The notes beneath the pieces were generated by a model that did no database searches, was not told the origin of the DNA, and was given only the letters and a program-made list of their open reading frames with translations. A stretch of 11,121 nucleotides of DNA from a virus, in the UHGV virus genome UHGV-0151769; one strand, written 5' to 3'. Below, one piece after another: positions 1 through 6,575 of this stretch. Each line of letters starts with the position of its first letter. Position 1 is the first letter of the stretch. The translations under genes and the position numbers were made by a program.

Positions 1-51
1 CGGCGACCACCGAGATCTACACTCTTTCCCTACACGACGCTCTTCCGATCT
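1..51. other. Illumina TruSeq universal (P5) adapter fragment; technical contamination at the contig end
   Basis: Bases 1-51 read CGGCGACCACCGAGATCTACACTCTTTCCCTACACGACGCTCTTCCGATCT, which I recognise as the 3' 51 nt of the TruSeq universal adapter. Recognised from memory, not aligned. Confidence 0.9.
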
Positions 52-148
52 TTATCAAAACGAGAATGACGCGGGTTTAGTGGCACCGGGCTGAACTCAC
101 CGGGAGGCACCCGGCACCATGTGCATGATGATACAGATACGCGGCTTT

Positions 149-176
149 AGCCCCTCTCCGGAGGGGCTTTCTTATG
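149..176 (+). terminator. Putative rho-independent terminator for rightward transcription
   Basis: GC-rich 8-bp inverted repeat AGCCCCTC / GAGGGGCT with a 4-nt loop (TCCG), followed by TTCTTAT. Confidence 0.5.
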
Positions 177-178
177 GA

Positions 179-208
179 CAAAAAAAGCCCGCGCTGGGAG
201 ACGCGGGC
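179..208 (-). terminator. Putative intrinsic terminator oriented for leftward transcription
   Basis: A-run (179-186) directly followed by inverted repeat GCCCGCG / CGCGGGC with an 8-nt loop. On the - strand this reads as hairpin plus a run of 7-8 T. Confidence 0.35.
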
Positions 209-2965: not shown

Positions 2966-3041
2966 GCCTGCGCAAGGGACCATCGGTGTGTGCCGGTGGT
3001 CTTTATATTGTTGTGAGCTTCCGGATAACGGGAGACGGGGT

Positions 3042-3257
3042 ATGTACCAGATGGAAAAAATCACAACAGGTGTGTCATACACCACGTCAGCGGTGGGAAC
3101 GGGCTACTGGTTCCTGCAGTTGCTGGACAGGGTTTCCCCGTCTCAGTGGGCGGCAATAGGCGTGCTGGGGAGTCTGCTGTTTGGGCTGCTGACGTACCTG
3201 ACTAACCTGTATTTCAAAATCAAAGAGGACCGGCGTAAGGCGGCGCGGGGAGAGTAA
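3042..3257 (+). CDS. S: Pinholin (phage 21 S21-type class II holin) with dual-start motif
   Basis: 71 aa starting MYQMEKITT (Met1 and Met4 mirror the S21 antiholin/holin pair). Two TMDs ([13 protein letters not shown] and [23 protein letters not shown]) and a basic tail ([13 protein letters not shown]). GGAG lies 7 nt upstream. Strong resemblance to phage 21 S21 as I recall it. Confidence 0.85.
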
Positions 3258-3261
3258 AGTG

Positions 3262-3582
3262 ATGAATAAAAAATATGAACTGGTTGTTAAGGGGATAAAT
3301 AATTACGGGGATAAGGTTACTGTTACTGTGAAGCCGGAAGGTGACGGGCAAGCGTCGCTGTTGTTGCCAGATGTGGCGATTAGTCTTGACCGTACTGAAG
3401 GTGCCACGCTGGAGTTTTACGAAGCTGAGGCGAAAAAGCAGGCGAAGCAGTTTTTCATGGATGTTGCTGCCGGGTTATGTGAATGGAACGAACCGTTGCC
3501 GGAAAAGCGCCCCGTAGCTACCGGGAAGAATTACTTGTTCTCTGAAGATGCCGCCGTCAACACTGCGGTCAGAAAAAGATGA
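3262..3582 (+). CDS. Hypothetical protein (moron ORF A, about 106 aa); unknown function
   Basis: Starts 4 nt after the holin stop (GTG at 3259 or ATG at 3262) with GGGAGAG 7 nt upstream. Predicted soluble and charged, with no motif I recognise. Visibly more AT-rich than flanking lysis genes (by eye, not computed). Confidence 0.55.
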   Translation: MNKKYELVVKGINNYGDKVTVTVKPEGDGQASLLLPDVAISLDRTEGATLEFYEAEAKKQAKQFFMDVAAGLCEWNEPLPEKRPVATGKNYLFSEDAAVNTAVRKR

Positions 3583-4111
3583 TGTTGAATCACGTATTGA
3601 AAAACTGGAGAGCTACGTCGTTGAGCTGAATAAGAAATGGTCGATATTGGTGCCTTCTGGCGATGAAAAGCAGTTTGCTGCGTTTGACGATTATTGTCGG
3701 AAAGTGATGAGCAGAAATCTCGCAGAGTGTTTCAGTATTCATAATGATAATTTCAGTGAGCTGGAATGGGAGTGTAACCGGCCATCCTTTGTTGTATCCG
3801 GTGATGCTGGGAAAATAACCATCTCAGAAAATGGGAAAGTAACACCTCCATCGCACCAGCACAGTGAGGAGCTCATTGAATTTGCCATTGATTACCTGAA
3901 GAACAATAAAAAGCAGGGGCTGATGAAGCGCGTTGGCCGTTGCATGGGATATCTTCAGGTAGCCGCTGAGATTGAAGCGCTGGCCAGTGGTGCTGATAAG
4001 GATGCAATTGTGCGGGAGGCTCTTCTTCGTGATTTTAATACTCCACCCTTTAAAAAAGTGCCGGCTTACTGGCTTCATCCGGGGCTGACTTATCTTAAAG
4101 TGCGTATTTAG
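3548..4111 (+). CDS. Hypothetical protein (moron ORF B, 187 aa); unknown function
   Basis: ORF in the +1 frame relative to ORF A, overlapping it by 35 nt. No TMD, no signal peptide, no recognisable catalytic motif. AT-rich. Ends 36 nt before the endolysin start. The true start is uncertain; this frame is open from 3518. Confidence 0.55.
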   Translation: MPPSTLRSEKDDVESRIEKLESYVVELNKKWSILVPSGDEKQFAAFDDYCRKVMSRNLAECFSIHNDNFSELEWECNRPSFVVSGDAGKITISENGKVTPPSHQHSEELIEFAIDYLKNNKKQGLMKRVGRCMGYLQVAAEIEALASGADKDAIVREALLRDFNTPPFKKVPAYWLHPGLTYLKVRI

Positions 4112-4147: not shown

Positions 4148-4681
4148 ATGAACACCAAAATCAAATACGGCCTGTCGGCTGCCGTTCTGGCGCTGATTGC
4201 CGCTGGTGCGCCTGCGCCTGACATTCTCGACCAGTTTCTGGATGAAAAGGAAGGCAACCACACCACAGCATACCGTGATGGTGCAGGTATCTGGACCATC
4301 TGCCGTGGTGCCATCATGGTGGATGGCAAACCTGTCGTTCCGGGCATGAAGTTGTCGAAGGAAAAATGCGACCAGGTTAACGCCATTGAGCGTGATAAAG
4401 CGCTGGCGTGGGTGGAGAAAAACATCAGAGTGCCGCTGACCGAACCCCAGAAAGCGGGGATCGCGTCATTCTGTCCGTACAACATTGGTCCCGGTAAGTG
4501 TTTCCCGTCGACGTTTTACAGACGAATTAATGCTGGTGATCGAAAAGGTGCCTGCGAAGCGATTCGCTGGTGGATTAAGGACGGTGGCAGAGACTGCCGT
4601 ATTCGTTCAAACAACTGTTACGGTCAGGTATCCCGTCGTGACCAGGAGAGCGCGCTGGCGTGCTGGGGTATCGACAGATAA
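4148..4681 (+). CDS. R: SAR endolysin (T4-lysozyme-family muramidase with N-terminal signal-arrest-release domain)
   Basis: 177 aa. The N-terminal Gly/Ala-rich weakly hydrophobic segment (YGLSAAVLALIAAGAPAP) is a typical SAR domain. The catalytic triad is spaced as in T4 lysozyme and R21: E, then D 9 residues later, then T 6 residues after that (EGNHTTAYRDGAGIWT). Paired with a pinholin. Confidence 0.85.
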   Translation: MNTKIKYGLSAAVLALIAAGAPAPDILDQFLDEKEGNHTTAYRDGAGIWTICRGAIMVDGKPVVPGMKLSKEKCDQVNAIERDKALAWVEKNIRVPLTEPQKAGIASFCPYNIGPGKCFPSTFYRRINAGDRKGACEAIRWWIKDGGRDCRIRSNNCYGQVSRRDQESALACWGIDR

Positions 4682-4837
4682 GCAGAATATTTTGCTGAAA
4701 AATGAGGAATGGCCACGCGGGCGGATAACACGAAATCCTGCGAACTGGCGAAACGTAAGTGAATAAAAGTAAAAACCCCGTTTGTTGGCACCAAGCGAGG
4801 TTTTGTGTTTCTGACCTTGAGTAAGGCAAGGGAGAAC

Positions 4838-5020
4838 ATGGCGAAGTGTAAACGAATTCTGTTGAGGTTGACTATGAAAAATGGCCTTGAACTGAAAGCG
4901 CCTGTAACTGATGACATCAGCAGAGCACTGGCTTTTGCCATTAAGTGGGTGGCGGTCGGTGTTGCTGTGTCCCCGATGCTGTATGGGCTGGCAAAACTGG
5001 TCATTGCGTTGAAATCGTGA
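4838..5020 (+). CDS. Hypothetical small membrane protein (60 aa; alternative start at 4874 gives 48 aa)
   Basis: Basic N-terminus ([12 protein letters not shown]) followed by a hydrophobic segment ([28 protein letters not shown]). An RBS is present for both candidate starts (GGGAG before 4838; GAGG 6 nt before 4874). Confidence 0.4.
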
Positions 5021-5034
5021 AGGGAGGATTAAGC

Positions 5035-5166
5035 ATGTCAGACAAACTCATAACGCTGGCGAAGATCCTCTGTGTAATTGTCGGCATTTCATTTTCACTA
5101 ATGCTGGTTGCTCTTTTTCTTTCCATGGCCTGGATGATGTTGTCTTCGTCGGGGTTGCTGGGGTGA
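5035..5166 (+). CDS. Hypothetical small single-TMD membrane protein (43 aa)
   Basis: Strong RBS (AGGGAGGA) 6 nt before the ATG. One clear TMD ([26 protein letters not shown]). The stop overlaps the Rz start (GTGA), suggesting translational coupling. Confidence 0.5.
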
Positions 5167-5636
5167 ACATAAACCGAATGCTTTCCGCGTTTATCGTTAT
5201 TCTGCTGGTGGCCTGTGGTGCGCTGTGGATGGCAACAGACCATTACCGTGATAACGCGATTACCTACAAAGCGCAGCGCGATAACAAAGCCAGTGAACTG
5301 AAGCTGGCGAACGCAACCATTACTGATATGCAGGTGCGCCAGCGCGATGTTGCTGCGCTCGATGCAAAATACTCGAGGGAATTAGCCGATGCGAGAGCTG
5401 AAAATGAAACTCTTCGCGCTGACGTTGCCGCTGGTCGTAAGCGCCTGCGGATCAACGCCACCTGTCCAGGCTCCGTGCGTGAAGCCCCCACCACCTCCGG
5501 CGTGGATAATGCAACCGGCCCCCAACTGGCAGACACCGTTACACGGGATTATTTCACCCTCAGAGAGCGGCTGATGACGATGCACAAGCAACTGGAAGGG
5601 GCACAGGACTATATCCGCACTCAGTGCCTGAAATAA
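5163..5636 (+). CDS. Rz: Rz i-spanin (inner-membrane spanin subunit)
   Basis: N-terminal TMD, then a coiled-coil region closely resembling lambda Rz as I recall it ([63 protein letters not shown]). Start is GTG 5163 or ATG 5178. Confidence 0.85.
5389..5574 (+). CDS. Rz1: Rz1 o-spanin (outer-membrane lipoprotein) nested in the +1 frame of Rz
   Basis: Entirely inside Rz in another frame. Signal peptide with lipobox (LPLVVSAC) and a proline-rich mature part ([30 protein letters not shown]) matching lambda Rz1. Confidence 0.8.
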
Positions 5637-5946
5637 GTTTTGTTGATGCGCCGTATCGTCGCTATATTCCCTCATTAACAGAGACCGCAGCCCGACAGGG
5701 AGACTCCTCTGCGCGAGTGTGCGGGGATAATTAAAAACGATGCACACCGGGTTTTTACCGCGTTAATGATTCGCGGGTTTATCCCGGTGCGATGGTGGAA
5801 GAAACAGGAAGCTGTATTACAGAAAGTGCTACTACTGTATCCCGATGCGATGTATGTAATGTGAGTCAGATAATGGCACAGGATGTGGTGATGTGGCAGT
5901 CTGGAACACAGGATATATTGTCAGAATAAGACCCGTAGGAATAAAA

Positions 5947-6273
5947 ATGAAAAGACGCCTTTTACTACTTTTTCTGTTATCTGTCCTGGCAGTGGGATGC
6001 TCACAGCAAAAAGCTGATGAGCCCCGGCAATTAGTGACGGTGTATCCACGATATCCGGAATATGCTGCAGCAAATTATATCAAGGGGCTGGTTGAGGTTA
6101 AGTTCGATATTGGTGCTGATGGGACTGTGACACGGATCGTTTTTCTCCGCTCAGAGCCTCATAATTTGTTTCGTGATGAAGTGGTGAAGGCCATGGCGAA
6201 ATGGCGATTTGAAAAGAATCGCCCCTGTCAGGGAGTGAAGAGACAATTTATCTTTACGCCGTCACGTCCCTGA
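5947..6273 (+). CDS. Prophage lipoprotein with a TonB C-terminal-like domain (108 aa); probable moron
   Basis: AGGA 6 nt upstream. Signal peptide with lipobox (LLSVLAVGC). The C-terminal part (GLVEVKFDIGADGTVTRIVFLRSEPHNLFRDEVVKAMAKWRFE) lines up block by block with the E. coli TonB C-terminal domain as I recall it ([43 protein letters not shown]). Confidence 0.7.
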   Translation: MKRRLLLLFLLSVLAVGCSQQKADEPRQLVTVYPRYPEYAAANYIKGLVEVKFDIGADGTVTRIVFLRSEPHNLFRDEVVKAMAKWRFEKNRPCQGVKRQFIFTPSRP

Positions 6274-6395
6274 TGCTTCCAGGTAGAGAGGGGCTGGACG
6301 CAGGAGAAAAATGAAAGAGCCAGCGGTTATATTTTTGTCATGGCTGACGAGGAATGATGGAAGAAGGCGTTGTATGCCACACAACGCCTCACTGT

Positions 6396-6575
6396 TCATT
6401 TCTTCTTTTTCTCTGGTGGAACCCGATGAATAAGAGTTGCACTGGTTTCCGATGAGATGGCGATATACTCGGGCAAAGTATGCTGGCAGTTTTCCAACTG
6501 GTCAAAAATACCTGCTCTCGTCTGTTGCAATGCCTGCAGCATGCGGCGGCAATGCGCCTTGCTTTTACTAACCAT
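6396..6575 (-). CDS. Hypothetical small protein (59 aa counted from the internal Met that has an RBS)
   Basis: The leftward ORF is open from 6749, but only the ATG at 6575 has a good RBS (AGGAAGGAAAG). Ends in a lysine run (PPEKKKK). No function recognised. Confidence 0.25.
   Translation of the reverse strand: MVSKSKAHCRRMLQALQQTRAGIFDQLENCQHTLPEYIAISSETSATLIHRVPPEKKKK

Follow-up and report, generated by a model that had tools for sequence, protein, structure and literature searches.

UHGV virus genome UHGV-0151769 (11,121 nucleotides (nt), the whole stretch analysed, hereafter called the window) contains DNA from the late region of an Escherichia coli lambdoid prophage. Inside its lysis cassette, between the gene that encodes an endolysin of the signal-anchor-release (SAR) kind and the spanin gene Rz, lie two short open reading frames (ORFs), ORF A (4838-5020, plus strand) and ORF B (5035-5166, plus strand), which are very probably real, late, accessory genes for membrane peptides. 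As judged by comparison among prophages, they belong to a mobile accessory module in which a terminator hairpin and a leader precede between one and four ORFs for small membrane peptides. The lysis of Gram-negative bacteria by phages is taught as a process of three steps, those of holin, endolysin and spanin, and here two conserved and selected peptide genes without an assigned function stand inside the cassette. An earlier sequence-only reading of this DNA had described A and B as two tandem small membrane-protein genes inserted at this place, and had listed lysis regulators, spanin-associated factors and type I toxin-like peptides as possible roles; the description proves correct and the functional reading is partly supported.

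Short ORFs of the size of A and B can arise by chance, and for this reason the evidence that they are coding was taken from comparison. The ratio of nonsynonymous to synonymous substitution rates (dN/dS) for ORF A is 0.09-0.30, at dS of up to about 1, when E. coli copies are compared with those of Salmonella or Citrobacter, and its variable sites are distributed over the three codon positions as 21/13/44. Diverged Citrobacter and Cronobacter copies of ORF B give 0.13-0.30 at dS of 0.45-1.3, close comparisons of B being noisy (0.2-0.56, with one outlier pair at 1.68), while the B sequences read in two shifted frames give 0.67-1.97. These ratios and, for B, the contrast between frames mark both A and B, on comparative evidence, as protein-coding genes under purifying selection. 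The sequence-only reading had named a lack of ORF conservation in related prophages as what would count against it; both ORFs are conserved there, and it stands.

ORF A extends from ATG 4838 to the stop codon at 5018-5020 and encodes 60 amino acids (aa), or 48 aa from an in-frame ATG at 4874; the first start is preceded by GGGAG at 4830-4834 and the internal one by GAGG at 4864-4867, 6 nt upstream. ORF B extends from ATG 5035 to the stop codon at 5164-5166 and encodes 43 aa, with a strong Shine-Dalgarno sequence, GGGAGG, at 5022-5027, 7 nt 5' of its ATG. Thus the good ribosome-binding sites claimed for the two ORFs are present at workable distances. The best 19-residue Kyte-Doolittle window scores 1.88 for A (residues 38-56) and 2.89 for B (residues 11-29), and AlphaFold models built on family alignments give A a low-confidence basic helix (residues 2-14), a loop and a confident helix (residues 23-59, pLDDT about 88), and give B a single helix (residues 2-38, pLDDT 89). 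Coordinates, hydropathy and models therefore agree with the claim of two genuine small genes, each for a protein with a single transmembrane domain. Moreover, A has eight K/R residues before its helix and four residues after the best 19-residue window, and B has an uncharged 14-residue tail after its helix. By the positive-inside rule this suggests that the N-terminus is inside and the C-terminus outside, with at most about 14 periplasmic residues; in such a topology the conserved helix itself would be the working part.

A profile search with ORF A among 1.84 billion representatives gave a family of 20 relatives, all of 20-87 aa, and no tie to a known family. Conservation in the family alignment is concentrated in the helix and tail, with the invariant residues F33, A34, I35, K36, W37, A39, V40, G41, S45, L48, Y49, G50, A52, L54, A57, K59 and S60, a pattern that speaks more for specific contacts made by the helix than for bulk hydrophobicity; the conserved region of ORF B includes W33. 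The basic N-terminal extension of A (12 aa) is conserved at the protein level in distant members. Met13 is nearly invariant across the family, and is always preceded, 6-8 nt upstream, by GAGG on the arginine codon AGG, a rare codon in E. coli. This internal Shine-Dalgarno sequence is kept in the nine copies compared, eight of which have GAGG on AGG; in the ninth (locus L013) the residues are changed, yet GGAGG is retained at the same distance. The conserved internal start would be the signature of a dual-start gene with two putative isoforms, one of 60 aa with a +4/+5 charged N-terminus and one of 48 aa with a neutral N-terminus. As a side observation, an 8-codon mini-ORF, MCREVYSL, precedes ORF A in Salmonella prophages (L010, about 2975-3003) and in GER2 (L008, about 1470-1497), its stop codon overlapping the GTG start of A (GTGA). 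The window type has lost about 25 nt here, so that the ATG and Shine-Dalgarno sequence of the mini-ORF are joined directly to ORF A.

In the databases both products are hypothetical proteins (A, WP_001446668.1 in the PGAP/RefSeq annotation; B, WP_001280932.1 in RefSeq). Scans against Pfam, NCBIfam and PADLOC gave no match for either (E ≤ 1 for Pfam and PADLOC), apart from a sub-threshold Pfam match of B to DUF3930 (E = 0.08). The profile matches obtained are to PHROGs without an assigned function, namely phrog_1115 (E = 3.7e-42, residues 1-60, full length), phrog_4493 and phrog_3246 for A and phrog_4906 (E = 2.1e-23, residues 1-43, full length) for B, and the earlier judgement that neither ORF could be assigned to a known family holds. 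Literature searches with the RefSeq accessions, lysis-cassette terms and Shiga toxin (Stx)-phage terms found no paper on A or B, nor did a survey of 279 Stx-phage genomes focused on lysis cassettes describe them. The genes are common all the same: the region is matched in 2121 of 5426 complete E. coli genomes (about 39%), in 990 of them over at least 80% of 519 bases, and these 519 bases around ORFs A and B are 100% identical to many E. coli chromosomes. Furthermore, 276 phage records have a match to ORF B, in each case over at least 80% of its length, and among them are 933W and numerous Stx1 and Stx2 phages. In 933W, P13374 and phiSTEC1589, the three Stx-phage loci that were inspected, B stands directly 5' of Rz.

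The position of the two genes is that of an insertion. Its upstream limit is the endolysin gene R, for a SAR-type phage lysozyme (4148-4681, plus strand; PF00959, E = 2.4e-24; phrog_7 endolysin), whose N-terminus, MNTKIKYGLSAAVLALIAAGAP, is a weakly hydrophobic, SAR-like segment, and its downstream limit is the gene for the i-spanin Rz (5163-5636, plus strand; PF03245, E = 2e-47; phrog_13), in which the o-spanin gene Rz1 is embedded (5389-5574, plus strand; a frame with the lipobox VVSAC). In lambda, R directly overlaps Rz, and in other genera of the Enterobacterales the endolysin gene abuts or overlaps Rz in 29 of the 30 informative Rz loci (31 were fetched, of which L128 is only a fragment). 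Accordingly, the A/B module is an insertion at the endolysin/Rz junction in E. coli and Salmonella lambdoid prophages, and the word "inserted" in the earlier description was well chosen. One more Rz locus, L114, also has an ORF between its endolysin and Rz genes (about 2376-2474; about 33 aa, MSPSSICFIVAGILTCLGMSGWGWFVFVGVILL), which is hydrophobic, small and unrelated. The record is labelled as a Geobacteraceae metagenome-assembled genome although its lysis genes are enterobacterial in type; this contig is probably misbinned.

Translation of the small ORFs may be coupled to that of the gene which follows. The small ORFs end in codons (CTG GGG TGA; TGG TGG TGA; GGT GGA TAG) that give the next gene a G-rich ribosome-binding site in every cassette type, and this gene begins at most 11 nt past the stop codon (stop/start overlap or gaps of 1-11 nt), which argues for coupling to Rz where Rz is next. 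The particular GTGA coupling of B to Rz that had been claimed depends on the start codon of Rz: it holds if Rz starts at GTG 5163, which overlaps the stop codon of B, and it fails if Rz starts at ATG 5178, the choice of PGAP, where the gap is 11 nt. Such overlaps and gaps and the G-rich codons, and likewise the fact that nearly all E. coli and Salmonella loci have A or B immediately 5' of Rz, would also fit an explanation in which A and B serve the spanin. They might mainly bring ribosomes back onto Rz once the inserted terminator and leader have been passed, or touch the membrane anchor of Rz with their helices. Such a role is distinctly improbable, because purifying selection on the peptide sequences is needless for pure coupling devices, B co-occurs with two different Rz N-terminal types, and A and B in Citrobacter, and B in Cronobacter, are found without any Rz. 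In addition, the Rz anchor is only a tether, and we know of no spanin regulator.

A and B are separable units of an array rich in families and not an obligate pair, since they occur between endolysin and Rz in variable combinations. The ORF types found, in variable order, are A, A' (the 38-aa conserved core of A), An (ending in RWW), B and C. An is related to A through the N-terminal half of the latter (47.6% identity, E = 4e-5 in the phage database), and C is a 31-aa peptide whose tail resembles that of A weakly (pairwise E = 0.002, only suggestive). The architectures include A-B (the window and the phages PhiR5_2/PhiR12), ant-B (933W and other Stx phages), C-B-A'-An' (PhiR5_1 and vB_EcoS-705R7), A alone (Salmonella prophages), An alone (GER2), and A-B-A'-An' and A-An' (IMG/VR contigs), and a B-A' fusion was found in P0214. 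A PADLOC scan of A, B, C and An gave no match at E ≤ 1. Two tandem A-superfamily peptides of 59 aa and 46 aa, both ending in IRWW, were seen in the metagenomic contig L137 (325-737), so tandem arrays recur in more distant relatives.

All of these small-ORF arrays open with one non-coding element directly 3' of the endolysin stop codon, which consists of a stem-loop, a hairpin and a leader. Stem-loop 1 (4718-4743, plus strand; GGCGGAT, loop, ATCC(T)GC) is conserved in E. coli and Salmonella copies, is present in the minimum-free-energy (MFE) fold of the window and has a perfect 7-bp stem in the Salmonella copies in the alignment. The intrinsic-terminator-like hairpin (4772-4811, plus strand) has the form AAAACCCCG, loop, CGAGGTTTT, followed by a U-rich tract, and may also be written AAAACCCCG-loop-CGGGGTTTT; it was recognized by a terminator scan (match at 4779-4797) and by comparison, and forms the 5' limit of the small-ORF module. 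Its stem is invariant and its loop variable over 17 sequence variants from five cassette types, and one inner pair is preserved through two-sided changes in 5 of 10 sequences; the window copy has one stem mismatch (CGAGG, not CGGGG). The leader, CCTTGAGTAAGGCAAGGGAGAAC (4815-4837, plus strand), which carries the Shine-Dalgarno sequence of ORF A and a small hairpin, CCUUG/CAAGG, present in the MFE fold, is conserved in the window, Citrobacter, Cronobacter and Salmonella copies. The stem-loop and the terminator-like hairpin are absent from Rfam, and an Rfam scan of the whole window gave nothing in the spacer or at A/B. They are common to E. coli, Salmonella, Citrobacter and, in part, Cronobacter prophages with unrelated endolysins, and 933W has a different terminator-like hairpin in the corresponding place.

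The module lies directly 3' of the endolysin gene in five cassette types, and its companions differ widely. In the window, A and B accompany a P21-type pinholin and a SAR lysozyme. In Salmonella prophages A comes after the endolysin gene beside an HP1-type holin plus lysozyme in L010, beside a P21-type holin, lysozyme and ant in L015, and beside a canonical holin of the lambda-S type plus soluble GH19 endolysin in L016. In Citrobacter portucalensis (L133), A and B both occur, their order unchanged and the same hairpin ahead of them, in a cassette with holin_8, holin_3_7 and a soluble GH108 endolysin and without Rz, and the gene after them encodes a 60-aa lipoprotein, phrog_7528. Cronobacter prophages have B with the phrog_7528 lipoprotein, again without Rz, and phiSTEC1575-Stx2k has An with this lipoprotein behind an M15 endolysin. 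This distribution, as far as comparison goes, argues against roles that tie the module to one lysis system, to a pinholin, to a SAR endolysin or to Rz.

The roles most readily suggested by the window, an antiholin acting on the S21-type pinholin, or else a protein acting on the SAR domain as releasin or anti-releasin, are affected accordingly. It is true that the window and all B-carrying Stx phages inspected use a P21-type pinholin and a SAR lysozyme, and membrane helices would be made simultaneously with these two proteins. Set against this are the presence of A where the holin is canonical and the endolysin a soluble GH19 enzyme, that of A and B with a soluble GH108 endolysin, and the absence from both peptides of a DUF2730 match and of a cytoplasmic domain like that of Mu gp25, so a partner-specific function of this kind is very unlikely. 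The antiholin, releasin and spanin-associated roles proposed earlier are all weakened by these contexts.

The lipoprotein gene mentioned above deserves a remark. The phrog_7528 product (L133 and L130, 2640-2822; L007, 1655-1837; L134 (phiP27), 2501-2683) has 60 aa with three Cys residues and follows A-, B- or An-type peptides in cassettes with holin_8, holin_3_7 and GH108 or M15 endolysins, in which there is no recognizable Rz or i-spanin. It was considered as a substitute for the spanin, but GER2 has Rz/Rz1 in addition to a phrog_7528-like ORF, while in phiP27 the lipoprotein is present and A and B are absent; for these reasons it is taken as probable cargo. A bolder and quite doubtful idea is that in Rz-less cassettes A and B join the phrog_7528 lipoprotein in a spanin-independent disruption of the envelope.

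As to expression, no sigma-70-like promoter site was found on either strand within 4500-6400 by a crude consensus scan, and no minus-strand terminator-like site within 4682-5200 by a consensus-based scan. Since the hairpin is not followed by a promoter-like site, A and B would, on the simplest view, be expressed from Q-antiterminated late transcripts alone, alongside the lysis proteins. These results bear also on the idea that A and B are type-I-toxin-like or abortive membrane toxins, to which their strong hydrophobicity and their length of 43-60 aa, the size of the Hok and Ibs classes, would be suited. The anatomy of a type I toxin locus is not seen: between 4682 and 5200 there is neither a promoter-like site on either strand nor a minus-strand terminator-like site (a weak test, being based on consensus), and A and B are embedded and translationally coupled within the late operon. 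Furthermore, there is no Rfam match at the locus and no match to a toxin family in Pfam or NCBIfam. A toxin function is hardly likely at all.

The role preferred here, with a confidence that stays somewhat below even, is that A and B tune the inner-membrane step of lysis independently of partners. They would not form part of any one holin, SAR endolysin or spanin, because they occur with four unrelated holin/endolysin combinations and even without Rz. Tuning of lysis is preferred because the module stays behind the endolysin gene in five cassette types, because A and B are probably co-expressed and coupled with the lysis genes, and because A has a putative dual start like that of holin/antiholin genes. 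The peptides would be produced late from the Q-antiterminated transcript alongside the lysis proteins, and could, for instance, shift the membrane energisation or the lipid/protein environment which sets the trigger time of any holin, while ORF A would yield two isoforms from its dual start, formally like holin/antiholin pairs. If this is true, burst timing and the release of Shiga toxin would be affected, and a partner-independent type of regulator would be added to the lysis toolkit.

Several points weigh against such a role. Paradigm phages lyse normally without A and B, neither peptide matches a Pfam holin family at E ≤ 1, and more distant A-superfamily genes stand after tail-fibre genes, outside lysis cassettes (L013/L014 and L136). 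The endolysin/Rz junction also hosts the ant-type antirepressor gene of Stx phages, which is clearly cargo unrelated to lysis. The dual start of A is deduced from sequence only, the crude promoter scan is compatible with expression in the lysogen, and no experiment or expression data for A or B were found in the literature.

Some of the same points favour the main alternative, that A and B are late cargo with no relation to lysis, which bind a conserved inner-membrane protein of the host and for which the junction is a permissive insertion site; they might, for example, block the DNA entry of a superinfecting phage or silence an envelope stress or abortive-infection sensor. The position after tail-fibre genes is a classic cargo site, an antirepressor gene shares the junction, and envelope-directed accessory genes lie downstream (the TonB_C-domain lipoprotein in the window and the phrog_7528 lipoprotein elsewhere). 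The distribution of the module is patchy and confined to a few genera, and the conserved polar and aromatic helix residues of A (K36, W37, G41, S45, P46, Y49, G50) would suit protein-protein contacts. On the other hand, without a promoter-like site there is no evident expression in the lysogen, where exclusion usually pays for a temperate phage, five cassette types keep the module immediately 3' of the endolysin gene, and PADLOC gives no match, so that cargo is a somewhat unlikely explanation. Should it be right, the endolysin/Rz junction would be a recombination slot bounded by a conserved RNA hairpin, with a bearing on how lysis modules are shuffled among enterobacterial prophages.

The surroundings of the module are those of a lambdoid late region. 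Upstream of the endolysin gene lie genes for a SASA/NanS-p esterase (402-2363), a DUF826 protein (2720-2965) and a phage-21-type (S21-type) class II holin with an M1/M4 dual start (2988-3257), followed by a frameshift-split gene of the DUF1327/YdfR family (3259-4111). The last consists of two ORFs of 107 aa and 187 aa, with the junction at 3515/3516, which match positions 1-87 and 110-296 of phrog_1085; the split is due to a 41-nt deletion relative to the intact 297-aa copy of E. coli 7/2 (L003, 4037-4930), and the gene is probably a pseudogene in this strain. At 1-179 (plus strand), 5' of the NanS-p esterase gene, the window matches the small RNA family STnc100 (RF02076; 78.7 bits, E = 7e-16), the match being clipped at the 5' end of the window. 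Downstream of Rz, at the position of lambda bor, is the gene for the TonB_C-domain lipoprotein (5947-6273, plus strand; PF03544, E = 7e-13; signal LLSVLAVGC), and 3' of this come lambda-type terminase and portal genes. The lipoprotein belongs to phrog_1267, whose label "Rz-like spanin" looks wrong, and it could interfere with TonB-dependent receptors. In Cronobacter prophages (L129-L132, 1-859), genes resembling those of heat-labile enterotoxin (PF01375 Enterotoxin_a and PF06453 LT-IIB) stand immediately 5' of the lysis cassette, in the position of stx in Stx phages. Finally, a 126-aa ORF runs antisense to ORF A and the spacer (4624-5004, minus strand); it is taken as a by-product and not a gene, because the selection signal is on the plus strand and the antisense ORFs of related loci are shorter (79 aa in L133 and 108 aa in L013).

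When A and B are compared with known systems, membership in the phrog_1115/4493/3246 (A) and phrog_4906 (B) groups is direct, and it names the genes without explaining them. Several candidate classes were rejected. A and B are not i-spanins, having at most 14 residues after the helix and no PF03245 match, with the true Rz at 5163-5636; they are not o-spanins or u-spanins, as neither sequence has a lipobox by inspection; and as spanin subunits in general they fail both by anatomy and by their occurrence without Rz. A regulator specific for a SAR endolysin or a pinholin is rejected because A is found with a canonical holin and soluble endolysins. Like the releasin of phage Mu, A and B are single-pass membrane proteins encoded near SAR endolysin and spanin genes. 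The Mu releasin, gp25, is a 99-aa protein with its N-terminus out and C-terminus in, a 73-aa acidic cytoplasmic domain and a DUF2730 assignment (PMC9239132). Neither A nor B, by contrast, matches DUF2730 or carries a domain of that kind, and both are probably N-in, so that domain, size and topology all place them outside the releasins.

Small membrane proteins carried as morons offer another comparison. HK97 gp15 is said to be a moron-type small membrane protein acting in superinfection exclusion, and A and B resemble genes of this type in being small, single-pass inner-membrane protein genes between conserved late genes, patchily distributed and with a terminator-like hairpin alongside. A moron has a promoter of its own and is expressed in the prophage state, whereas a consensus scan gives no promoter-like site at A/B, and the terminator-like hairpin lies upstream instead of downstream. 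A further comparison is with P2 LysA and P1 LydB, reportedly accessory lysis-timing proteins whose genes stand beside those of endolysin and spanin. The likeness lies in position, a gene for a non-essential membrane protein being placed between that of the endolysin and an Rz equivalent, and in a proposed role in lysis timing. LysA is said to have four transmembrane segments and about 140 aa, while A and B have one helix and a third to half of this size.

The last comparison is with the dual-start holin/antiholin genes (lambda S107/S105 and phage 21 S71/S68). A and B differ from these in having one helix instead of two or three, in the distance between the starts of A (12 codons instead of 2-3) and in lacking a Pfam holin match, and a true S21-type holin is already encoded at 2988-3257. 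It is quite doubtful, though conceivable, that A and B found a new class of partner-independent, late, single-helix modulators of lysis, in which A would be a one-helix, dual-start, holin/antiholin-like gene and the hairpin cassette would move between lysis systems. The features shared with lambda S and phage 21 S are that A and B encode small inner-membrane proteins in a late lysis cassette, and that in ORF A both of the in-frame starts are preceded by a Shine-Dalgarno sequence, with the longer predicted product bearing more positive charge at its N-terminus.

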